This document shows positions 2,010 through 48,652 of a stretch of 64,000 bases of DNA, one piece after another (positions within the stretch are counted from its first letter, which is position 1; each line of letters begins with the position of its first letter). Under the pieces are notes generated by a model, which worked only from the letters and a program-made list of their open reading frames with translations, had not been told where the DNA came from and did no database searches. Location of the stretch: contig CAVXTP010000022.1 in assembly GCA_963764715.1 (NCBI GenBank), positions 275,735 through 339,734 of the forward strand, in the 5' to 3' direction. The stretch is from an uncultured Acidobacteriota bacterium (GTDB lineage: Bacteria > Acidobacteriota > Thermoanaerobaculia > UBA5066 > Gp7-AA6). Position numbers and translations under genes: made by a program.

Positions 2010-2927
2010 CTACTTGCGGCGGAGAACGACGCGGTCGCTCGCGCCCGCCGGCTGCGAGATCGTGACGGCGACGTTCAGCCCGACGAAGTCGGCGGCGCCG
2101 GAGAGGTCCCAGACGAGGTTCCGGAACCCGCGCAGCGAGCTGTCGGGCCCGGGGTGGATGACCTTCGACAGGGCGTCCGACCCCCGCGGGGCGGCGTAGG
2201 CCGGCGAGAGGTAGAGGTACGACAGAAAGCCGGTGGCGTTGACGCCGGCCTGGACGAGGTAGTCGGGCTCCCGGGACTCGAGCAGGAGATAGGTCGTCTC
2301 CTCGGGGCTCCGCCGCTGGCCTTCGATGACCTTCCAGGTCCGCTCGCGCCGCGGCATCCACGGCGCGAACGGGATGAAGTCGATCGCGACGCCGGCGCCG
2401 GCCGGGGAGGAAGCCAGCGCGGCGGCGAGCTCACGGACCCGGCGCCCGCCGTCGGGAACCGTCAGGTACCCGGCGCCCGCTCCGCCGCGACCCGGGTCGG
2501 TGAGGGTGACTCCCGCGGAGACCACGTTGCCCGCGCGGTCCGTCTCGACGAAGACCTCGCGGAGGGCCGGCCGCGGAGGCGTCCCGGCGATCGTCGTGGC
2601 GATCTTGCCTTCCCACCGCCCGGTCAGGTCGAGTGCCCAGGGCTCGGGCGAGGTCGAGGGCGGCGGCGCGCCCACGTCCGCGGTGCCCGCGCTCCGGGAT
2701 CCCCAGAGGAGGACGCCCGTGATGACGGCGAGCGCGAGGGCCGCGAGGACCAGGAGGTACTGGCGCGGGATCGCGGCCAGGATGGCCCCCGGCGAGGACG
2801 GCGCGGCGGGCGGCGGCGGGGAGACGGGCTCGGAGGGCGTGGGCCGCTCGAGGCTCTTCTTGCACTTGAGGCATTTCGCCGCGGGGATCTGCGTAAACCC
2901 GCAGTGAGGACACGTCACCCAGGCCAT
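2010..2927 (-). CDS. zinc-ribbon membrane-anchored hypothetical protein
   Basis: N-terminal CPHCG...CLKCKK zinc ribbon, Pro-rich linker, one TM helix (LLVLAALALAVITGVLLW), ~200-aa extracytoplasmic domain. Confidence 0.6.
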   Translation of the reverse strand: MAWVTCPHCGFTQIPAAKCLKCKKSLERPTPSEPVSPPPPAAPSSPGAILAAIPRQYLLVLAALALAVITGVLLWGSRSAGTADVGAPPPSTSPEPWALDLTGRWEGKIATTIAGTPPRPALREVFVETDRAGNVVSAGVTLTDPGRGGAGAGYLTVPDGGRRVRELAAALASSPAGAGVAIDFIPFAPWMPRRERTWKVIEGQRRSPEETTYLLLESREPDYLVQAGVNATGFLSYLYLSPAYAAPRGSDALSKVIHPGPDSSLRGFRNLVWDLSGAADFVGLNVAVTISQPAGASDRVVLRRK

Positions 2928-3038
2928 GGGTGAATGGTAACCGATCGTGCGTAAGTCTTGGTGCAGTCAGTAGTAAGCGGTAAGCCGGGGGATGGCTGTC
3001 GCGACGCTTACTGCTTACCGCCTACGGCTTACTGACTC

Positions 3039-4100
3039 TCAGATCTCCCGGAAGAAAAACCTGTCCAACACCGACATCCGCTCCTGGAGCTGCTTCGGAT
3101 CCGGATCCATGAGCCAGAGCGCGGCGTGGATCGAGGAGGCGAGGGAGTTGCCGTCCTGCGGCGTGAAGCAGAAACCGACGATCTCGTGGCCGCCGGGGAC
3201 CGCGATCGTGGGGGAGGCGATGACGGCCTGGGACAGGATGCGGCCGTAGTACCCGTGGTCGCGCCCGAACGAGAAGATCTGGTTGGCCGAGCGGCGCTCG
3301 GTCACCGCGATCCGGCGGTTGGCCTTGAGCTTCGAGAGCACCTGCTCCTTCGACGTCGGTTCGGACACGTCCATGTCGAACCACAGGGCGTGCATGTACT
3401 GCGTGTTCATCTTCATCGCGGACGAGAAGATCGGCGGCTCCCATCCGATCGTCGAGAGCAGCGCCGACGCGTCGCGGGCGTGGTGCGTGCCGAACTCCGG
3501 GTCGTCGTGCTTGCCGACCGACGGCGCGGGCGCGAAGCCCGAGTCCTGCGACACGTCGTTCGCCCGGCGCATGCAGACGAAGCGGCCGCGCGTCAGGATC
3601 TTGCCGCCCGCGTCGTTGGTCCCGAGCGTCTTGATGAGGCAGGAGATGTTGTGGGTGTTGCAGGAGACGATCTGGAGAAAGCGGTCCTGCCCGGGGATGA
3701 GGGCCTCGTCGTTGATCCCCATGGCGTACATCTTTCCGAACCCGAACTCGCTGCCCTGGGCGAGGAACCCCCGTGGGCCTGAGATCTTCTCGTAGACCTT
3801 CTTGTTCTCGTTGCCGGCCGGGGTGCAGTCGATTACGACGGTCGCCCGCTCGAGGGCCGGGCCGGCCTCGTGCGAGACCTTGTGCCCGAGGGCCTCGAAG
3901 TCGGCGAGCTTGTCGGAATCGACCGCGAGCTTCGCCCCGCGCGCCATGAGGTGATTGACCTTCGCGCGCTCGGTGGTCATCGGCGTCCGCTTGTGGAAGG
4001 TGACCTCGTCGACGCCGAGGTGCTTGCCGAAGTCGGTGAAGAGACCGATCAGCGGCTCTCCGATCGTGCCCGTCCCGACGATGTGGACGATCCGTTTCAT
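3039..4100 (-). CDS. type II (archaeal-type) glyceraldehyde-3-phosphate dehydrogenase family oxidoreductase
   Basis: N-terminal Rossmann GTGTIG; VIDCTPAG; catalytic-Cys block IVSCNTHNISCLIKTL (compare archaeal GAPDH VVSCNTTGLCRTL); RRANDV and HHARD blocks also collinear with archaeal GAPDH. Confidence 0.65.
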   Translation of the reverse strand: MKRIVHIVGTGTIGEPLIGLFTDFGKHLGVDEVTFHKRTPMTTERAKVNHLMARGAKLAVDSDKLADFEALGHKVSHEAGPALERATVVIDCTPAGNENKKVYEKISGPRGFLAQGSEFGFGKMYAMGINDEALIPGQDRFLQIVSCNTHNISCLIKTLGTNDAGGKILTRGRFVCMRRANDVSQDSGFAPAPSVGKHDDPEFGTHHARDASALLSTIGWEPPIFSSAMKMNTQYMHALWFDMDVSEPTSKEQVLSKLKANRRIAVTERRSANQIFSFGRDHGYYGRILSQAVIASPTIAVPGGHEIVGFCFTPQDGNSLASSIHAALWLMDPDPKQLQERMSVLDRFFFREI

Positions 4101-4186
4101 CGCGTTCTCCTGTCGATCGAAGGCGTTTGGGACCCGGAACGGCGGGAAGGATACGATGAGACGGGCGATTCGCCAACCGGAGGGCG

Positions 4187-4840
4187 ATGGTGGCGGGCAG
4201 GCTTCGTTCCGTGACGTTTCGCGGTCCCGCCGGGGCCCTCGAGGGCCTCTGGAAGGAGGCGTCGCAACCGCGCCGGGGCTCGGCGGTCTTCGCGCACCCC
4301 CATCCCATGCACGGCGGCACGCTTCACAACAAGGTCGTCTACCGCGCGGCGCAGGCCCTGGCGCGGTCCGGGTGGGAGACGCTCCGGTTCAACTTCCGGG
4401 GCGTCGGGGTGTCGGAGGGCCGGTACGACGCGGGCCGCGGCGAGGTCGAAGACTTCCGGGCGGCCCTCGACGAGGCCGAGCGCGCGGCCGGCCGGCCGAT
4501 CGTCGCGGGAGGCTTCTCGTTCGGCTCGGCCGTCGGCCTGAAAGCGGCGGCGGGGGATCCGCGGGTCGCGGCGTTCGTCGCGCTCGGCGTGCCGCTCGCG
4601 ACCGAGTCCGGGCGCATGGTGCCGGTGCCCTCGGTCCCGTCGCTCTTCGTCGTCGGCGAGAACGACCGCTTCGGGCCGCCCGAGGACCTCGCCCGGTTCC
4701 TGGCCGGGCGTCAACGGATGGTCGTCATCCCCGGAGCCGACCACTTCTTCGAAAGCCAGCTCGAGCTGCTCGGCGAGACGATCCTGGAGTTTCTCGCGTC
4801 GCTTCCGGCGGCGACGCCGGCGGCGGAAGCACCGGCGTGA
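4187..4840 (+). CDS. alpha/beta-fold hydrolase (COG2945-like)
   Basis: 217 aa; HPHPMHGGT and GFSFGS (nucleophile elbow G-x-S-x-G) motifs. Confidence 0.75.
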   Translation: MVAGRLRSVTFRGPAGALEGLWKEASQPRRGSAVFAHPHPMHGGTLHNKVVYRAAQALARSGWETLRFNFRGVGVSEGRYDAGRGEVEDFRAALDEAERAAGRPIVAGGFSFGSAVGLKAAAGDPRVAAFVALGVPLATESGRMVPVPSVPSLFVVGENDRFGPPEDLARFLAGRQRMVVIPGADHFFESQLELLGETILEFLASLPAATPAAEAPA

Positions 4841-30016: not shown

Positions 30017-31201
30017 ATGGCGCAATCCAACGGCGTTTTCATCCTCGACGGGGCGCGGACCGCGATGGCGGAGTACAACGGCGCTTTCGCCGACGTCACG
30101 GCGATCGACCTCGGCGTCCACGCCGCCCGGGAGGCCCTGCGCCGCAGCGGCGTCGAGCCCGGGCAGATCGACCACGCGATCTTCGGCAACGCCCTGCAGA
30201 CCTCGGGCGACGCGATCTACGGCGCCCGGCACGTGGCGCTCAAGGCGGGCGTGCCGAAGGAGGTCCCGGCGCTGACCGTCAACCGCCTGTGCGGGTCCGG
30301 CTTCGAATCGATCGTGCAGGGGGCGCACCGCATTCTCCTCGGGGAGGCGAAGACGGTGCTCGCGGGCGGGATGGAGAACATGTCCCAGGCGCCGCACGTC
30401 ATCCGGGGCGCCCGCAAGGGCTTTCGGCTCGGCCAGGGGCAGCTCGAGGACTCGCTGATGGTCGCCCTGCTCGACTCCTACTGCGGCCTCTACATGGCCC
30501 AGACGTCCGACCGCGTGGCCGGCAAGTACGGCATCACCCGGGCCGCGCAGGACGCCTATGCGCTTTCCTCGCAGCAGCGGGCGGCCGCGGCCTGGGACTC
30601 CGGGCGCCTCGCCGAGGAGGTCGTCCCCGTCGAGGTCAAGGCCGGGCGCAAGACCGTCCGCGTCGAGCGGGACGATCACCTGCGTCCGGACTCGACGCTC
30701 GAGGGCCTCGCCGGATTGCCCCCGTCGTTCGGGAAGGACGGGTCGGTGACCGCGGGGAACGCCTCGGGCATCGTGGACGGCGCCGCGGCGGTGGTCGTCG
30801 CCTCGGAGGATGCGGCGCGCGGCCGGAAGCCGCTCGGCCGCCTCGTGTCCTGGGCGGTCGTCGGCGTGGAGCCGGAGCTGATGGGTCTCGGTCCGGCGCC
30901 GGCGGCGCGCGCGGCGATCCAGAGAGCGGGGCTGTCCCAGAACGACATCGGCCTCTGGGAGATCAACGAGGCCTTCGCCGGCCAGATCCTCGGCGTGGTC
31001 AAGGAGCTCGGGCTCGACCTCGAGAAGTTGAACGTCAACGGCGGAGCGATCGCGCTCGGCCATCCCCTGGCCGCGACGGGCACGCGCTGCACGCTGACCC
31101 TGCTGAAGGAGATGCGGCGCCGCGGCGTGCGTTACGGGCTGGCCGGCGCCTGCATCGGCGGCGGGCAGGGCATCGCCGTCGTCGTGGAGTCGGCCGCGTA
31201 G
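30017..31201 (+). CDS. acetyl-CoA C-acetyltransferase (thiolase II)
   Basis: 394 aa; catalytic Cys block VNRLCGSGFESI, C-terminal NVNGGAIALGHPLAATG and GLAGACIGGGQG. Confidence 0.9.
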   Translation: MAQSNGVFILDGARTAMAEYNGAFADVTAIDLGVHAAREALRRSGVEPGQIDHAIFGNALQTSGDAIYGARHVALKAGVPKEVPALTVNRLCGSGFESIVQGAHRILLGEAKTVLAGGMENMSQAPHVIRGARKGFRLGQGQLEDSLMVALLDSYCGLYMAQTSDRVAGKYGITRAAQDAYALSSQQRAAAAWDSGRLAEEVVPVEVKAGRKTVRVERDDHLRPDSTLEGLAGLPPSFGKDGSVTAGNASGIVDGAAAVVVASEDAARGRKPLGRLVSWAVVGVEPELMGLGPAPAARAAIQRAGLSQNDIGLWEINEAFAGQILGVVKELGLDLEKLNVNGGAIALGHPLAATGTRCTLTLLKEMRRRGVRYGLAGACIGGGQGIAVVVESAA

Positions 31202-31222
31202 TCGGCGAGCGGGGATCGGGCG

Positions 31223-31561
31223 ATGAACTGGACCGAGCGGATCCTCGAGTTCCCGGTGCGGGCGGCGGCGGTCGACGACTTCCTGCGGGACCTGCGGGCC
31301 CGGGGAGCCGGGGACCTGAACGCCGTCCTGACGACGTTGAACGAGGGCGGCCTGTGCCGGGAAGTCGTGCGCCGCTGGACCGAGAGCGGCTGGATTGTCG
31401 TCGCGCCGAACACGCCGCTGCTGGCCCTGACCGGCCCGGCCTTCGAGCCGGAGCTGACGCTCTCGGACTTCTGCAGCGACATCGAGATCCTGGAGACGCC
31501 GGCCCTCGCGGGCCCGGAGGCGTCGACGGGGGAGGGGACGGAGGACCATGGCGATTCGTAA
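31223..31561 (+). CDS. hypothetical protein (112 aa) inside thiolase/hbd operon
   Basis: G/C-biased third positions; 3' end overlaps hbd start. Confidence 0.45.
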   Translation: MNWTERILEFPVRAAAVDDFLRDLRARGAGDLNAVLTTLNEGGLCREVVRRWTESGWIVVAPNTPLLALTGPAFEPELTLSDFCSDIEILETPALAGPEASTGEGTEDHGDS

Positions 31562-32402
31562 GGTCGGTGTTCTCGGCGCGGGCCTCATGGGCTCGGGCAT
31601 CGCCGAGGTGTGCGTGAAAGCGGGCTACGACACGGTGGTCCGCGAGGTCAGCGACGAGCTCGTCAAGAAGGGGCTCTCGCGCATCGAGGGCTCGCTCGGA
31701 AAAGCCGTCGAGAAGGGCAAGCTTCCGGCGGCCGACCGCGACGCCGCCTGGAAGCGGCTCCACTCGACGACGAAGCTCGAGGACCTCGCCGATTGCGACC
31801 TCCTGATCGAGGCGATCGTCGAAAACCTCGACGTCAAGAAGGAGACGTACCGCGCGCTCGACGCGGCGTGCAAGCCGGAGACGATCTTCTGCTCCAACAC
31901 CTCGTCGCTGACGATCACCGAGATGTCCGCGGCGACCAAGCGACCGGACCGGTTCGCGGGACTCCACTTCTTCAACCCGGTCCCCGTGATGAAGCTCGTG
32001 GAGGTCGTCCGCACGATCGCGACGTCCGAGGAGACCTTCGCGACGGTCTTCGAGTTCGCGAAGTCGCTCGGCAAGGAGCCGATCCGTACGCACGACAACT
32101 CCGGCTTCATCGTCAACCGTCTCCTCGTCCCGTACCTGCTGGACGCGGTCCGGGCCCTCGAGGAGGGCGTCGGCTCGCGCGAGGACATCGACAAGGGCAT
32201 GGAGCTCGGCTGCGGCCACCCGATGGGGCCGCTGAAGCTCCTCGACTTCGTCGGTCTCGACACGACCTACGCGATCGCCGAGATCATGTTTGCCGAGTAC
32301 CGGGAGAAGCGCTTCGCGCCGCCCCCGCTGCTGAAGCGCATGGTCCTCGCCGGGCGCTACGGGAAGAAATCCGGGCGAGGCTTCTACGAGTACGGAGGGT
32401 AA
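31548..32402 (+). CDS. hbd: 3-hydroxybutyryl-CoA dehydrogenase (3-hydroxyacyl-CoA dehydrogenase, NAD-binding)
   Basis: VGVLGAGLMGSGIAEV Rossmann; HFFNPVPVMKLVEVV; GFIVNRLL. Confidence 0.9.
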   Translation: MAIRKVGVLGAGLMGSGIAEVCVKAGYDTVVREVSDELVKKGLSRIEGSLGKAVEKGKLPAADRDAAWKRLHSTTKLEDLADCDLLIEAIVENLDVKKETYRALDAACKPETIFCSNTSSLTITEMSAATKRPDRFAGLHFFNPVPVMKLVEVVRTIATSEETFATVFEFAKSLGKEPIRTHDNSGFIVNRLLVPYLLDAVRALEEGVGSREDIDKGMELGCGHPMGPLKLLDFVGLDTTYAIAEIMFAEYREKRFAPPPLLKRMVLAGRYGKKSGRGFYEYGG

Positions 32403-32403
32403 C

Positions 32404-33183
32404 GTGAGCGACTTCGTTCTCGTCGAGACTTCGGACCGCGTCCGCACGCTGACCATCAACCGGCCGGACAAACTGAACGCGCTGAACGCGGAGGTCATGG
32501 CGGCCCTCGACGGCGCGCTCGACGCGGCCCGGGACGACACCTCGGTCGGCGTGGTGATCATCACGGGCTCGGGCGAGAAGTCCTTCATCGCGGGCGCCGA
32601 CATCGGCGAGCTCTCGAAGCTCACGCCCGTGGAGGGCCGGGAGCACGCGCGCCGGGGCCAGGCCGTCCTCGCGAAAATCGAGGCGCTCGGCAAGCCCGTC
32701 ATCGCCGCCGTCAACGGCTACGCGCTCGGCGGGGGATGCGAGCTCGCGCTCGCCTGCACGATCCGGATCGCCTCCGAGAACGCGCGCTTCGGACAGCCCG
32801 AGGTGAAGCTCGGAATCCTGCCGGGCTACGGCGGCTCGCAGCGGCTGGCCCGCATCGTCGGCGAGGGCCGGGCGATGCAGCTCTGCCTGACGGCCGAGCC
32901 GATCGACGCGGCGGAGGCCTGGCGGATCGGGCTCGTCAACAAGGTCGTCCCCCCGGGCGAGGCGGTCGCGGCCGCCCGCGCCATGGCCGCGCAGATCCTC
33001 GCGAACGGCCCGGTCGCCTGCCGGTACGTTCTCGAGGCGGTCCACCGCGGCCTCGACCTGCCCCTTCCCGACGGCCTCCTGCTCGAGGCCACGCTCTTCG
33101 GGCTCTGCGCCGCCACCTCCGACATGAGGGAGGGGATGACCGCGTTCCTCGAGAAGCGGCCGGCGCGGTTCACGGGGAAGTAG
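32404..33183 (+). CDS. enoyl-CoA hydratase (crotonase)
   Basis: GTG start; oxyanion-hole and catalytic blocks FIAGADI and NGYALGGGCELALACTIRIAS. Confidence 0.85.
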   Translation: MSDFVLVETSDRVRTLTINRPDKLNALNAEVMAALDGALDAARDDTSVGVVIITGSGEKSFIAGADIGELSKLTPVEGREHARRGQAVLAKIEALGKPVIAAVNGYALGGGCELALACTIRIASENARFGQPEVKLGILPGYGGSQRLARIVGEGRAMQLCLTAEPIDAAEAWRIGLVNKVVPPGEAVAAARAMAAQILANGPVACRYVLEAVHRGLDLPLPDGLLLEATLFGLCAATSDMREGMTAFLEKRPARFTGK

Positions 33184-42592: not shown

Positions 42593-43347
42593 GCTCCCGC
42601 CTCCGCGGGCCTCTGGCGGCGGGTGATCTCTTCGAGGAGGAAGCCGGCGACGCGGGAGGCCGTCGTGCCCGGGCCGAAGCCGGCGTCGTAGCCGAGCTCC
42701 TTGGCGAGCGCGTGGTCGATCCTCGCCCCGCCGGCGACGAGCACGACCCGGTCGCGCAGCCGTTCGGCCTCGAGCATGTCGACGAGGTCGGTCATGTGGC
42801 GGACGTGGATGTCGTTCTGCGTCACGGTCGCGGAGACGAGGACGGCGTCCGCCTTCGTCTCCCGGATCTTCCGGGCGAGCTCGGCGACCGGGACCTGCGC
42901 CCCGAGGTTGCGAGCGTCGAAGCCGTGGTAACGCTCGAGGCCGTAATCGCCGGCGAAGCCCTTCATGTTGAAGATGGCGTCGAGGCCCACGGTGTGGGCG
43001 TCGGACTCGAGGGCGCACCCGAGCACGACGAGCCGGCGGCCGAAACGGCGGGCGATCTCGGCGTCGATCTCGTCGCGGGTCAGCGCGGCGGCGGGAGCCT
43101 CCTCGGCGGTGATCGACGCCACGTCGATGTCCTGCGTCGCGCGCCCGTAGACCACGAAATAGGTGAAGTCGGGCGCGATCGCCTCGGCGAGCGTGACGTA
43201 GGGCTCCCGCAGGCCCATCCGGGCGACGTAGCGCTTGGCGGCCTCGGTCGCGACCGCCGAGCGGGGGATCGGGAGCGTGAAGGAGACCTGCACGGCGCCG
43301 TCGCCCTTCTTGTCGCCGTACGGCCGGACGAGCCGCGGCGGGCTCAC
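42589..43347 (-). CDS. kamE: lysine 5,6-aminomutase beta subunit (B12-binding)
   Basis: N-terminal [21 protein letters not shown]; B12-binding DxHxxG ([10 protein letters not shown]); GTG start overlapping kamD stop. Confidence 0.8.
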
Positions 43348-44903
43348 GCGCGGGCTCCGGCCGGCGCCGGCGTCCAGGCCTCCATGAAGGGATTGGCGTA
43401 GCCGGCGTCCTTGCGCAGCACGCCGTCGTAGCCCCGGCCGCCGTCGCGGCGCCGGCGCGTGTCGGCGAAGACGCCTTCGGCCAGCGCCCCGAAGAGGCCG
43501 CGGCGGGCGACGTCCTGGAGGATCGCCTGCGCCCCGGCGAGGACGGCGCGGGCCCGGGCCACGATCCGGCCGTCGGGATCGAAGCGCAGCTCGTCGCGCA
43601 GGTGCCGGGCGTTCGACCGGATCGTCTTCATCTGGTCGATCGCGAGCCACCGGTCGTGGAGGAAGGGCGTGTGGAGGGCCTCGGTCAGCATCCCGAGCAG
43701 GTGGATCGACTGTCCCGTGGCGACCGACGTCAGCGCGAAGAGCGTGTTCTGCTGGTAACCCCGGAAAATGTTGCCGGTCATGTGCTTGGTCGGCGGCATG
43801 TACTTCAGGGGCGCGTCCGGGAAGATCTCGCGGGCGGCCTCGGCCTGGGCGATCTCGTAGAGCAGCCCGTCCTCGAGCGCCGGGTCGATCTCGAAGGCGT
43901 GGCCGAGGCCGATCTGCCAGTCTTCGAGTCCCGCGTCCTTCGCGAGACGCTCGTTGATGAACTGCGACGCGAGGACGGCCGGGGCCTGCTCGACCGCGTC
44001 GGCCGTCGTGAGGTAGTTGTCCTCGCCCGTGTTGATCACGACGCCGGCGACCGCGTTGATGCGGCGCGAGAAGCTCTGGTCGATCAGGGTCCGCAGCGGG
44101 TTGATGTCGCGGAAGATGATGCCGTACAGCGCGTCGTTCAGCATCATGTCGAGGCGCTCGAGGGCGCCCATCGCCGCGATCTCCGGCATGCAGAGGCCCG
44201 AGCAGTAGTTGACGAGGCGGACGTACCGGCCGAGCTCGGGCTCGAGTGCGTCGAGGGCGGCGCGCATGAGGCGGAAGTTCTCCTGCGTGGCGTAGGTCCC
44301 GCCGAAGCCCGAAGTCGTCGCGCCGTAGGGCACGTGGTCGAGGAGCGACTGCGCCGTCGAGCGGATGACGGCGATGCACTGCGCGCCGGCCCGCGCCGCG
44401 GCCTCGGCCTGGACCACGTCCTCGTGGATGTTGCCGGTCGCGACGATCGCGTAGAGGAGAGGGAGCTCCTCCGGCGGATGGCTCGCCTGCCGGCGCTCCC
44501 GCTCGGCGCGGTTGGCGCGCACGCGGGCGAGCGTCGACTCGACGTGGCGGGCGACGGCGTCCCGCCAACGGGGGTGCTCCGCCTGGGCCTCGGCCCGGCG
44601 GGGGTCCGAGAGCCGGGCCGCGGCTTCCGCGACCGTCGAAGCGTCCGAGGCGAGTGCGCTTCCCATCCACACGGCGGCGCCGCGTCCGAGCTTGCCGCAC
44701 TCCTGGAGGGCCTCGACGACGCGGTTGGGAACCGGGACCTCCTCGGCGTCGACGCCGTCGACTCCGAGCAGGCGCAGGACCGTCCGTTCGGTCGCGACGG
44801 TGGTGAAGGGCTCGGTCTCGAGGCGGACGCCGTCGGCGACCTGCCGGCCGAGACGCCGGCAGTCCTCGATCGTTTCTCGAGAGAGGCCCAGTTTCGAGGC
44901 CAT
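43344..44903 (-). CDS. kamD: lysine 5,6-aminomutase alpha subunit (PLP/TIM-barrel)
   Basis: 519 aa, collinear with the KamD family. Confidence 0.8.
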
Positions 44904-45841: not shown

Positions 45842-46888
45842 TCACGCGCCCGGCCGGCCCGCGAGGTCCGCGAAGGCCCGGGCGAGCGCGGGATGGCGGC
45901 GAAGGAGGTCGAGAGCGAGGCCGTCGTGGCCGGGAACGAAGCCGTTCCCGATCGCGAGCCGCGTGGGCTTCGCGAGGCCCTCGGCGCCGAGGGCGGCGGC
46001 CGAGAACGACGTCGCCATGCCGAAGAACACGACGGTGCCGTCGTCCCGGGCGCAGAGGACGCTCGCGGCCTCGGTCCCCGAGGCGTTGGCGACGTTGACG
46101 ACGAGGTCCGCCAGCCCGCCGGAGGTCGCAGTCTCGATCGCCGAGAGCATGGCCACCGGATCGCGGGCGTCGACCGAGAAGACCTCGTCGGCGAAGCCGA
46201 GGCCCCGGGCGCGGTCGGCGGCCGCCCGGCCCGGCTCGACCGCGAGGACACGCCCGTTTCCGCCGACGGCCTCGCGCGCCGCCGCCAGGCACAGGAGACC
46301 CGCCTTGCCCGTCCCGATGACGAGGATGGTCTGCCCGGCCTTCGCGTCGCGCCGGACCGCGGCGGGCGCGCCGGCGACGTCGAAGGCGGCGAGCGCGACC
46401 TCCTCCGGGAAATCGTCGGGAAGGCGGGCGAAGAGCGTGCGCGCGAAGAGGATCGCCGTGCCGCGGGCCTCCACGCGCTCGGTCTCGACGTGCACCGCGC
46501 CGATCGAGTCCAGGGACAGGGGCGTCAGGGTCAGGGAGACGAGGGTCGCGATCGGCGTGCCGGGGAGGAGGTTGCCGGCGGCGGGGTGGCGGGGACCGAC
46601 CGTCGCGACCTCGCCGAGAAGCATGCCGCCCGAGCCCGTGACCGGGTTCTGCATCTTGCCGCGCTCGCGCACGATGCGGACGATCTGGTCGCGCACGGTC
46701 TCGCCCGTCGAGGCCTCCGCCTCGCGGAGCTGCCGGAACGAGGCGGAGTCGATCGAGAGCGCGCGCACCGAAACGGCGATCTCGTTCTCGAGCGCGCGCG
46801 GCGTCGCGTCGAGGCGCCGCGCCAGCTGCGGAAGGACGCCCGGGGGATCGAGCGAGCGGTGGAGCCCGAAGGGATGGGGCGCCGTCAT
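45842..46888 (-). CDS. kdd: candidate L-erythro-3,5-diaminohexanoate dehydrogenase (MDR-like, Rossmann VIGTGKAGLL)
   Basis: 348 aa; GroES-like N-terminal domain plus NAD(P) Rossmann; context immediately upstream of kamDE. Confidence 0.6.
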   Translation of the reverse strand: MTAPHPFGLHRSLDPPGVLPQLARRLDATPRALENEIAVSVRALSIDSASFRQLREAEASTGETVRDQIVRIVRERGKMQNPVTGSGGMLLGEVATVGPRHPAAGNLLPGTPIATLVSLTLTPLSLDSIGAVHVETERVEARGTAILFARTLFARLPDDFPEEVALAAFDVAGAPAAVRRDAKAGQTILVIGTGKAGLLCLAAAREAVGGNGRVLAVEPGRAAADRARGLGFADEVFSVDARDPVAMLSAIETATSGGLADLVVNVANASGTEAASVLCARDDGTVVFFGMATSFSAAALGAEGLAKPTRLAIGNGFVPGHDGLALDLLRRHPALARAFADLAGRPGA

Positions 46889-46898
46889 CGGGCCCGCG

Positions 46899-47702
46899 TC
46901 ACGGCACGAGGCCGACGATCCGCAGGGGCCCGCCCGAGCCCCCGGCGATCTTCATCGGAAGGGCGATGACCCAGGCGCCCCATTCCGGAAGGTCCTCGAG
47001 GTGGGCGACGTTCTCGAGGCCGAAGACGTCGGCCCCGTTCGCGATGACGTGGACGACGAAGTCCCTGGACGCGCCGTAGTCGATCGAGGCCGTGTCGACC
47101 CCGAGCGCTCCGACCTTGCGCTCCGACACGAGATAGCGGGCCGCCTCCTCGCCGTAGGACGGGAAGTGGAGCTTCGAGGCGTCGCCCGGCGTGTCGTCGC
47201 CGAGGTAGGCCTTGCGGTCGGGCCAGCGGGCGCTCCACCCGGTCCGCAGGAGGACGATGGCGCCGGCGGGCACCGGGCCGTGGGCCTTCTCCCAGGCCTT
47301 CACGTCCTCGAGTCGAAGGCGGTAGTCCGGATTCTTCGCGGCCGCGTCGCGGACGTCGATCACGGCGGCCGGCGCGATGAGGCGCCGGACGGGGATCTTG
47401 TCGGCCGTCTGGCCGGCCTCGGCGAAGTGGCTCGGCGCGTCGAGGTGCGTCCCGCCGTGCTCGGGCGTGCAGAAGGTGTTCGACCGGTAGAACCAGCCGC
47501 CCGGCGTTTTCCCGTCCGCGAGCGACTTGAGCTCGAAGGCCGAGGGCGAGGTCGGCCAGTAGAGCGTCTTGTCGTCGAAGGGATGCGTCAGGTCGACGAC
47601 CTTCGCCGTCGCGAGGTCGGGCGGCTTCGGCGAGCCGGCGGCCGACGCGGAGGCGGCGGCGGCGAGAATCGCGGCGATCGCGAGGGCGCGGCGCATGATC
47701 AC
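46899..47702 (-). CDS. cyclase-family protein (kynurenine formamidase-like), secreted
   Basis: Signal peptide; HGGTHLDAPSHF metal-binding motif. Confidence 0.7.
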   Translation of the reverse strand: MIMRRALAIAAILAAAASASAAGSPKPPDLATAKVVDLTHPFDDKTLYWPTSPSAFELKSLADGKTPGGWFYRSNTFCTPEHGGTHLDAPSHFAEAGQTADKIPVRRLIAPAAVIDVRDAAAKNPDYRLRLEDVKAWEKAHGPVPAGAIVLLRTGWSARWPDRKAYLGDDTPGDASKLHFPSYGEEAARYLVSERKVGALGVDTASIDYGASRDFVVHVIANGADVFGLENVAHLEDLPEWGAWVIALPMKIAGGSGGPLRIVGLVP

Positions 47703-48652
47703 TCCTCGGCGGCGCCGCCCGCCCGGGCGAGCTGCTCGGGCTTGACGGACTCCGCCTTGAACTTCCTGGCCGAGGCCAGCATCTTGTCGAGCGTCTCGTC
47801 GAAGTCGGCCTTCGCGCCCCGCTGGAACCGGAGCGGGTTGATGCGCGCGACGACGAAGGTCCGCAGGTACGGGCTGTCGAAGCCCTTCTCCTTGAGCGCC
47901 TTCATCGCGGCCGCGACGGCCTCCTCGAGCTCCATGAGCCTCGCCGCGCGTTCGGCCCGGACCTCGAGCGACTTCGCGAGCGGCTTGGCGAGAAACGCGT
48001 CGACGCGCTTCAGGAGCGGATGGTAGGCGCCGCCGGCGAAGCGGCCGTTCTTCTCGTAACAGACGCCGAGCGTCAGGAACGCGGCCTCCTCGAACTCGAG
48101 CGCGTAGTCCTTCTCGGCGAGATCGCCGGCGGCGAGGTCGCGCGCCATGCGGATGACCTCGAGCGACTTCTCCCGGAGGTTGTGGGCCTTCTCGGTGTTC
48201 AAGGCCAGGATTTTGTAGGCGATCTCGGGCTCGGGGAGGACGAGCGCGGTGATGGAGCGGGCGCCGAGGTTGCGTAGCGCCGCGAGGCGGTGGTGCCCGT
48301 TGGGCGTCCGGTACACGCCGTCGCTTCCGCGCACCGCGATGATCGGGTCGAGGAAACGGCCGAGGGCGTCGATCACGCCCGTGAGGCGCTTGACGTGCGA
48401 CTCCGAGAGGTCACGCTGGAAGGCCGTCGGCTCGACCTTCTCGATGGGGAGCGAGGCGAGGAGCTGCCAGTGCCCGCCGAGAGGATCGCGGTAGAGCGCC
48501 AGGGCCGCGCCGCCGTCCCCGCGGACCGCGTCGGCGAGCGCCGCCGCCGCCGGGGGTGGCGTTCCCGCCGCCGCTTCGGCGGCTTCGAGGCCGCGGGACT
48601 TCGAGTCGGCCTTCTTGCGTCGCTTGCCGGCCATGCGAGCGGATGCTTTCAC
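47699..48652 (-). CDS. ParB/sulfiredoxin-like nuclease-domain protein
   Basis: ParB N-terminal-domain motifs RLTGVIDALGRFLDPIIAV and GHHRLAAL. Confidence 0.6.
   Translation of the reverse strand: MKASARMAGKRRKKADSKSRGLEAAEAAAGTPPPAAAALADAVRGDGGAALALYRDPLGGHWQLLASLPIEKVEPTAFQRDLSESHVKRLTGVIDALGRFLDPIIAVRGSDGVYRTPNGHHRLAALRNLGARSITALVLPEPEIAYKILALNTEKAHNLREKSLEVIRMARDLAAGDLAEKDYALEFEEAAFLTLGVCYEKNGRFAGGAYHPLLKRVDAFLAKPLAKSLEVRAERAARLMELEEAVAAAMKALKEKGFDSPYLRTFVVARINPLRFQRGAKADFDETLDKMLASARKFKAESVKPEQLARAGGAAEE

Follow-up and report, generated by a model that had tools for sequence, protein, structure and literature searches.

Glyceraldehyde-3-phosphate dehydrogenase (GAPDH) ranks among the best-studied enzymes, and its diversity is usually summed up as type I, found in bacteria and eukaryotes, and type II, found in archaea and a few bacteria. 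The archaeal type II enzyme works mainly in the gluconeogenic direction. We were interested in a gene for a type II-like, GAPDH-fold dehydrogenase that lies on a 64-kb stretch of DNA from an uncultured Acidobacteriota bacterium of the class Thermoanaerobaculia (contig CAVXTP010000022.1; the whole stretch is called the window below). An earlier note, made from the letters of the window, had described the 353-aa product as an archaeal-type GAPDH homologue in a bacterial chromosome and had considered that its substrate may be other than glyceraldehyde 3-phosphate (GAP). With slightly better than even confidence, and from sequence comparison, we read it as a functional phosphorylating GAPDH that depends on NAD(P) and belongs to a type II-like clade of its own, probably mainly gluconeogenic in its host.

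The M. fervidus enzyme (PDB entry 1CF2) served as reference for the active site. Its nucleophile Cys140 is flanked by Ser139 and Thr142, and proton abstraction is assigned to His219, possibly assisted by Asn141; one phosphate site is formed by Ser139, Asn141, Arg167, His193 and His194, the phosphate of GAP is bound by Arg167 and Arg168, and NADP-dependent enzymes carry a Lys in place of the Asn of NAD-specific ones (2025 review of aldehyde dehydrogenase superfamilies, PMC12041015). The 1CF2 sequence was rebuilt from the HMMER alignment, and its numbering agreed exactly with the residues named in the review.

Homology, fold and active site

The gene under study is located in the window as follows:

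3039..4100, minus strand: type II-like GAPDH-fold dehydrogenase gene (open reading frame with ATG start, 353 aa)

A check of open reading frames and motifs confirmed the position and strand given in the earlier note and all six motif blocks that it had listed, namely GTGTIG (residues 9-14), VIDCTPAG (89-96), SCNT (146-149), RRAND (178-182), HHARD (206-210) and MHALW (236-240). The protein is homologous to archaeal type II GAPDH, shares its two-domain fold and can be aligned to it collinearly from end to end. When the single sequence was searched against the PDB, four archaeal GAPDH structures were found at E values of about 1e-8 to 1e-7, and a profile of 56 family members matched 1B7G, 2YYY, 1CF2 and 2CZC over residues 1-348, with values of 1e-40 to 1e-34. 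With the same profile the best values for type I GAPDH and erythrose-4-phosphate dehydrogenase (E4PDH) were about 1e-6, chiefly over the N-terminal half, and the protein is thus a relative of the archaeal enzyme and not of type I Gap, as had been proposed. An AF2 model computed on the 56-member alignment (pLDDT 97.3, pTM 0.94) led to the same result in Foldseek, where the top six matches were chains of the four archaeal GAPDH entries (TM 0.78-0.86, rmsd about 3 A, 18-22% identity), followed by type I GAPDH and E4PDH with a TM of about 0.6-0.7.

A Pfam search of the 353-aa protein gave no match even at E <= 1, neither to PF00044 nor to PF02800. In NCBIfam only the two type II GAPDH equivalog models were matched, both under their cutoffs, with 82.5 bits versus a cutoff of 185 for NF003251 and 54.9 bits versus 232.9 for TIGR01546. 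Nine other family members, taken from Thermoanaerobaculia, viral contigs, Berkelbacteria, Marinimicrobia, a Thermoplasmatales archaeon and three more distant representatives, scored 67-124 bits with NF003251, and two canonical bacterial type II GAPDHs encoded on plasmids scored 445 and 448 bits. Neighbour-joining with 202 sequences placed the four archaeal enzymes as outgroup to a 196-member family clade, with long branches between them; this placement is provisional, as the tree was built without bootstrap and with four archaeal sequences only. Because its scores are far under both equivalog cutoffs and it forms a separate clade in the tree, the family is provisionally regarded as a separate, so far nameless clade and not as an orthologue of type II GAPDH. 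The label of type II GAPDH used in the earlier note therefore stands for homology but not for orthology.

Members of the family are named 'hypothetical protein' at NCBI and 'glyceraldehyde-3-phosphate dehydrogenase (NAD(P)) / type II / erythrose-4-phosphate dehydrogenase' at JGI, and a literature search found no paper on them. For the window protein, no match to aspartate-semialdehyde dehydrogenase (ASADH), ArgC or Semialdhyde_dh was detected in Pfam or NCBIfam, and none was present among the 60 listed PDB profile matches; the only trace of ASADH in the family was a single NCBIfam match (E 7e-4) of the distant member P0121. A grouping with a well-characterised bacterial family of other function was not observed. 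Longer homologues (P0096, P0098 and others) were considered as possible fusion proteins and rejected as N-terminally over-extended open reading frame calls in high-GC DNA.

In a joint alignment the site residues of 1CF2 corresponded to S146, C147, N148, T149, R178, R179, H206, H207, H237 and K37 of the window protein, so that the catalytic Cys/His pair, on which the earlier assignment depended, is kept as C147/H237. Among 48 sequences from Thermoanaerobaculia and 71 from viral contigs this set showed 100% conservation, with the exception of T149 (98% in the viral sequences), and position 207 is occupied by H or Q in more distant family representatives. K37, within HKRTP, was aligned to K33 in the SKTRP of 1CF2, its role in binding of NADP being taken from the review (PMC12041015). 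Q115, D182, R287 and Q315 are also common to the window protein and the archaeal enzymes. Judged by these residues, the protein has kept what is needed to form a thioester, to cleave it by phosphorolysis and to bind a phosphorylated substrate. This speaks for a phosphorylating dehydrogenase that still acts on a triose-phosphate-like substrate, and it is the main argument for the function proposed below.

Several full-length representatives (P0166, P0172, P0176, P0233, P0265 and P0192) were observed without the catalytic Cys and without several phosphate-site residues, with, for example, PDV-GTH or GS-GAH replacing SCNTH. They may be pseudoenzymes or neofunctionalised paralogues.

Distribution, selection and genomic context

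A scan with one genome per species detected relatives in at least 591 GTDB species genomes, the best 80 of which were almost all Thermoanaerobaculia or unclassified Acidobacteriota metagenome-assembled genomes (MAGs) with 61-94% identity. The family is compact, since an exhaustive search of 1.84 billion cluster representatives led to only 708 at E <= 1e-3. Beyond Thermoanaerobaculia, members were found in Candidatus Marinimicrobia, Patescibacteria, Berkelbacteria, a MAG labelled Pseudomonadota and a Thermoplasmatales archaeon. A 100% identical protein is encoded on a contig of 720,664 bp, and among the relatives with a name the nearest come from Thermoanaerobaculia/Acidobacteriota MAGs, indicating that the host is bacterial and that the gene is located on a bacterial chromosome, as previously supposed. 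Complete or nearly complete assemblies with the gene include OY970373.1 (a chromosome of 7.66 Mb), CAWFHK010000001.1, CAWDEF010000001.1 and CAWCPN010000002.1.

Comparison with six orthologues gave ratios of nonsynonymous to synonymous substitutions (dN/dS) of 0.07-0.18, and the gene is under purifying selection. Its conservation exceeds that of the genes around it in synteny; at locus L029, for instance, it showed 68% identity versus 40-59% for five syntenic neighbours. Its GC content at third codon positions (GC3) of 0.95 is as expected for a genome of 70% GC, and as it is also conserved and syntenic across Thermoanaerobaculia, it is a native, constrained gene of the class and no recent import.

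A separate, mostly mid-GC set of 32 metagenomic loci (a subset of L188-L252; GC 0.43-0.72, mostly 0.50-0.59) was observed with roughly 53-57% identity to the window protein. In an example sequence from this set, GTHQGRDA, Gln replaces H207. The flanks, judged by eye, contain DUF192-like (11 loci) and TldD/PmbA-like (9 loci) genes and were uninformative. A metagenome scan with a single member from the candidate phyla radiation (CPR) as query gave no match.

For the analysis of the genomic context, loci were searched with a narrower alignment (A2), as the 56-sequence alignment (A1) was too diverse, and the context was also read from P0111, which is 78% identical to the window protein, since exact look-ups of the window protein and of P0001 gave no record. 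The reported lack of glycolytic neighbours was reproduced: tblastn with E. coli GapA, Epd, Pgk, TpiA and FbaA gave no match in the 64-kb window, and Pfam annotation of 20 further window genes revealed no glycolytic enzyme. When the fructose-1,6-bisphosphate (FBP) aldolase/phosphatase of CPR and the archaeal triose-phosphate isomerase (TIM) were used as queries, the window and about 250 related loci were negative, save for the two source loci. One of these belongs to Berkelbacteria, where the family member is located about 260 bp upstream of, and on the same strand as, a PF01950 gene. We take PF01950 to be the bifunctional FBP aldolase/phosphatase that uses GAP and dihydroxyacetone phosphate in gluconeogenesis. 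In the Thermoplasmatales archaeon the member is two genes away from a PF00121 TIM gene.

Within the clade to which the window belongs, the syntenic flanks comprise an aminotransferase, a Na/Ca exchanger, a SpoU methyltransferase, AMMECR1 and a hydrolase on one side, and a membrane protein, an NYN protein, a 4HBT thioesterase and a small Cys-rich protein on the other, and this synteny is functionally uninformative. The same holds for the more distant Thermoanaerobaculia loci, with a TRAM/U5-type RNA methyltransferase downstream and a divergent upstream gene that looked von Willebrand factor A-like by eye. Other contexts included NUDIX and hydrogenase genes, housekeeping genes in Marinimicrobia, and an NTP_transferase gene near the member at locus L168. 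Because the gene stands alone in nearly every lineage, the missing pgk and tpi genes say little about the substrate. The suggestion in the earlier note that their absence may point away from GAP thus found no support, the phosphate sites being conserved and two distant members being located near FBP aldolase/phosphatase or TIM genes.

The following further features of the window were considered:

4106..4111, minus strand: Shine-Dalgarno sequence AGGAGA, read from the sequence, 5 nt 5' of the ATG
2965..3037, minus strand: imperfect hairpin with 21 paired bases (predicted RNA fold -36.8 kcal/mol, z = -2.9 versus shuffles)
2010..2927, same strand as the GAPDH-like gene and downstream of it: gene for a 305-aa protein with an N-terminal CxxC...CxxC and a hydrophobic segment, no Pfam match
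4187..4840, divergent and upstream of the GAPDH-like gene: alpha/beta hydrolase gene (PF00561 and others)
43344-44903, minus strand: catabolic genes, beside further open reading frames at 45842-48652, minus strand
30017-33183, plus strand: catabolic genes

Both direct neighbours named in the earlier note, a zinc-ribbon membrane protein gene and a divergent hydrolase gene, were found again. The Shine-Dalgarno sequence is placed within the 86-bp divergent intergenic region common to the GAPDH-like and hydrolase genes, and the putative ribosome-binding site was graded strong. A consensus scan upstream of the GAPDH-like gene gave no match to a sigma-70-like promoter, and Rfam and tRNA scans found nothing relevant. 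Starting 2 nt past the stop codon, the hairpin lies within the 111 nt that separate the gene from the next one, and it has no U-tract; the terminator scan made no call due to the missing T run. It is unusually long and rather AT-rich against the 70% GC genome. Its position would fit a transcript-end (terminator-like) or mRNA-stabilising structure, which is its probable function.

A small, lineage-restricted protein of about 90 aa with an invariant CxxC...CxxxxC, resembling a zinc ribbon, is encoded at 249-533 on the plus strand of the window; of 82 loci, 56 showed a genomic linkage between its gene and the GAPDH-like gene. Homologues were observed at L001-L081, L175, L176, L180, L181, L190, L194, L206, L216, L221, L232, L233, L245 and L246. 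In the window's clade its gene is about 2.5 kb away from the GAPDH-like gene on the opposite strand, and at most of the more distant Thermoanaerobaculia loci it is found 0-415 bp upstream on the same strand, a spacing and orientation that suggest an operon of both genes in those loci. The protein has 249 database matches and no Pfam domain, is sometimes named 'ribosomal protein S27E' at JGI, and gave a poor AF2 model (pLDDT 61). Its hidden Markov model matched in Thermoanaerobaculia only and not beside viral or other distant members.

Among the catabolic genes of the window, Pfam annotation revealed M1 and M28 peptidases, two amino-acid permeases, the alpha subunit of D-lysine 5,6-aminomutase (PF09043, 750 bits) and a set of thiolase, 3-hydroxyacyl-CoA dehydrogenase and enoyl-CoA hydratase. 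This gene set suggests a fermentation of lysine or other amino acids to butyrate or acetate in the host.

Relatives on viral contigs

Relatives with 45-53% identity, nearly all of full length, were detected on 76 IMG/VR viral contigs (L090-L165; 4-285 kb, GC 26-50%), of which about 40-48 share a common gene order around the homologue. In the main viral clade it is located between a peptide deformylase gene and a block of trypsin-like protease and PIN-PhoH genes, followed by an exonuclease and glycosyltransferases. The neighbours matched the PHROG families for PIN-PhoH (393 bits), peptide deformylase, exonuclease and glycosyltransferases, and the neighbouring PhoH is 34-40% identical to PhoH of cultured phages. 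At another locus (L089) a member is located between ClpP and DnaE genes, in a module with a ribonucleotide reductase (with intein), ThyA, GIY-YIG and a MazG-like gene. Capsid, portal or terminase genes were not seen in the readable flanks of the viral loci, GenBank phages gave one marginal partial match of 26% only, PHROGs contained no member of the family, and a fold search in BFVD gave no GAPDH-like match (best TM 0.42). The assignment to viruses is accordingly a putative one, based on the IMG/VR classification and the phage-typical neighbours.

A large conserved protein of about 740-1320 aa is encoded upstream of the GAPDH-like gene at L100 (332-4291, plus strand) and, by its homologues, at further loci (cluster c12, 28 viral loci). 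It gave a weak cytidyltransferase-like PHROG match.

Viral and metagenomic branches surround the Thermoanaerobaculia clade in the neighbour-joining tree, which gives no direction of transfer as its internal branches are very short. The viral homologue would be an undescribed candidate auxiliary metabolic gene. One may go further and assume a third GAPDH-fold lineage, sister to archaeal type II, that has been exchanged between uncultured marine phages and several bacterial and archaeal lineages, with a domesticated copy in Thermoanaerobaculia. As a phage auxiliary metabolic gene it would then divert the triose-phosphate and NADPH metabolism of infected cells, or else it would, by means of H150, Q234, D316 and N318, serve for a substrate other than GAP. 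We consider this wider scenario possible, if rather doubtful. The spread over a bacterial class and onto viral contigs is in any case the most unusual aspect of the family, and it was invisible to the earlier note.

Proposed function, alternatives and comparison with known systems

If the protein acts as the archaeal enzyme does, C147 would attack the aldehyde of GAP, with H237 (and N148) as base, and the hydride would be transferred to NAD(P)+, the 2'-phosphate being read by K37. Inorganic phosphate bound at S146/N148/R178/H206/H207 would then cleave the thioester to yield 1,3-bisphosphoglycerate, while the C3 phosphate would be held by R178/R179. In the host, an apparent peptide and amino-acid fermenter, the reaction would run mainly in reverse, from 1,3-bisphosphoglycerate and NADPH to GAP. 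Such a gluconeogenic need may be expected because the peptidases, permeases, aminomutase and thiolase set of the window fit an amino-acid fermenter that must build sugars. The gene itself would be a stand-alone, probably monocistronic housekeeping gene.

Several points weigh against this function. The scores are far under the curated GAPDH-II cutoffs, and H150 (Thr in archaea), Q234 (Thr), D316 (Glu) and N318 (variable) are invariant in Thermoanaerobaculia and viral members, unlike in the four archaeal enzymes; H150 is located three residues past the catalytic Cys, and any of these residues could alter the specificity. No homologue of Gap, Epd, Pgk, TpiA or FbaA was found in the window, 81 related loci, the viral loci or 80 further metagenomic loci (10-kb reach), the pathway links in Berkelbacteria and Thermoplasmatales are one instance each, and it is by analogy only that we infer the gluconeogenic direction and the preference for NADP. 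Moreover, P0121 has a UDP-glucose/GDP-mannose dehydrogenase gene 9 bp downstream, P0225 overlaps a Bac_transf gene, and glycosyltransferase genes are located near phage members (L090 and the main viral clade). The main alternative, in essence that of the earlier note, is a neofunctionalised type II paralogue that performs the same phosphorylating chemistry on a different anionic aldehyde, be it erythrose 4-phosphate, another sugar-phosphate aldehyde or a sugar-nucleotide or polysaccharide intermediate, which we regard as unlikely, though to be taken seriously. It would fit with the long branch that sets the clade apart from archaeal GAPDH, with sub-threshold scores on both equivalog models in all lineages, with the family-specific H150 near the catalytic Cys and Q234 in the TQxMH block, and with the sugar-nucleotide and glycosyl-transfer neighbours (P0121, P0225, L168, L090 and the main viral clade). 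The occurrence of the family in an archaeon also favours it, as we would expect this Thermoplasmatales archaeon probably to own a canonical type II GAPDH too. However, the published residues of both the inorganic phosphate site and the GAP phosphate site are all 100% conserved, and significant matches to the ASADH, ArgC or E4PDH families are missing save for that of P0121 to ASADH (E 7e-4). E4PDH-type enzymes are non-phosphorylating and are not known to have an intact inorganic phosphate site, and the substrate-binding residues of ASADH and ArgC differ. In addition, no lineage has a conserved pathway partner, and the sugar-related neighbours vary from case to case.

The top NCBIfam and PDB matches, the label of type II GAPDH given to members by the JGI pipelines, and the shared fold and active site would also agree with a plain orthologue of archaeal type II GAPDH, recently transferred into the bacterium and the same as the members of NF003251/TIGR01546. 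This is improbable, as such an enzyme is expected neither to score 82.5 bits with NF003251 (cutoff 185, canonical enzymes 445-448) nor to be only 18-22% identical to the archaeal structures, the archaeal sequences are outside the 196-member clade, and the native-like GC3 of 0.95 is found together with conservation and synteny over the whole bacterial class. A virus-derived passenger (moron) or decaying relic that plays no metabolic role in the host might account for the 76 IMG/VR contigs with homologues of 45-53% identity, the nesting of the Thermoanaerobaculia clade among viral branches and the loss of the catalytic Cys in a few representatives, yet it is very improbable in view of the dN/dS of 0.07-0.18, host-like codon usage, intact frame and strong predicted ribosome-binding site, of catalytic residues that are all intact, and of dozens of Thermoanaerobaculia genomes in which its syntenic position is kept and phage genes are not found nearby. 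A phosphorylating GAPDH of a distinct type II-like clade is therefore the reading that we slightly favour, with GAP as the substrate proposed from the conserved site residues.

From the sequence data, the family can provisionally be described as a compact, strongly conserved sister group of type II GAPDH that is characteristic of Thermoanaerobaculia and also found on contigs catalogued as uncultured marine viruses. As this third branch is invisible to Pfam, a 'hypothetical protein' at NCBI and a GAPDH at JGI, a step of central metabolism may be missed or over-read when metabolism is reconstructed for Thermoanaerobaculia, some CPR bacteria and Marinimicrobia. If the activity with GAP is true, a curated model of the clade would mend the annotation of thousands of sequences and the enzyme would show a route of gluconeogenesis in an abundant class of soil and sediment bacteria. 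The viral branch would add an enzyme of glycolysis/gluconeogenesis to the candidate auxiliary metabolic genes of marine phages. If the substrate is not GAP, the family would be a case of neofunctionalisation with an intact phosphorylating active site.

Among known systems, type I GAPDH and E4PDH (E. coli GapA and Epd) share with the family the superfamily and the covalent Cys chemistry, and their Rossmann domain is weakly detectable (E about 1e-6). They differ in the catalytic block, SCTTNC in type I versus SCNTHN in the window protein, in a TM of only about 0.6-0.7, and in the residues H, A, G, A and S that GapA has in the columns of R178, R179, H206, H207 and H237. B. subtilis has, beside its glycolytic NAD enzyme, GapB as a second, NADP(H)-using GAPDH for gluconeogenesis, which is also of type I. 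GapB would be a functional analogue of the role proposed here, its relationship in sequence being that of the superfamily.

Archaeal-type GAPDH in bacteria is already known from plasmids of Paracoccus, Acidovorax, Corynebacterium, Rhizobium and others, which carry PGAP-annotated type II GAPDHs. Two of these canonical enzymes, WP_103174168.1 (Paracoccus sp. AK26, plasmid pAK2) and WP_087748522.1 (Acidovorax sp. T1, plasmid p1-T1), belong to the same superfamily and are 23-28% identical to the window protein. The canonical bacterial enzymes are plasmid-borne and occur in metal-resistance or pentose-phosphate-like contexts, whereas the window family is chromosomal and nameless. At both plasmid loci (L166 on pAK2, L167 on p1-T1) the type II GAPDH gene was observed near genes for an approximately 800-aa 'xylulose 5-phosphate 3-epimerase', for a ribose-phosphate pyrophosphokinase and for a heavy-metal ATPase or multicopper oxidase. 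The 'epimerase' is by its size possibly a phosphoketolase. This set recurs as an accessory module separate from the window family.

The closest known system is archaeal type II GAPDH (NF003251/TIGR01546; GapDH_II cd18127 in CDD; 1CF2, 1B7G, 2CZC and 2YYY), with which the family has in common the fold, the Ser-Cys-Asn-Thr block, the base His, both phosphate sites and the NADP lysine. It differs from the archaeal enzymes in three motifs, SCNTH standing for SCNTT, TQYMH for TTLMH and PQDGN for HQES..PEN, and by its hosts, which are bacteria and viruses, whereas the archaeal type is found mainly in archaea.

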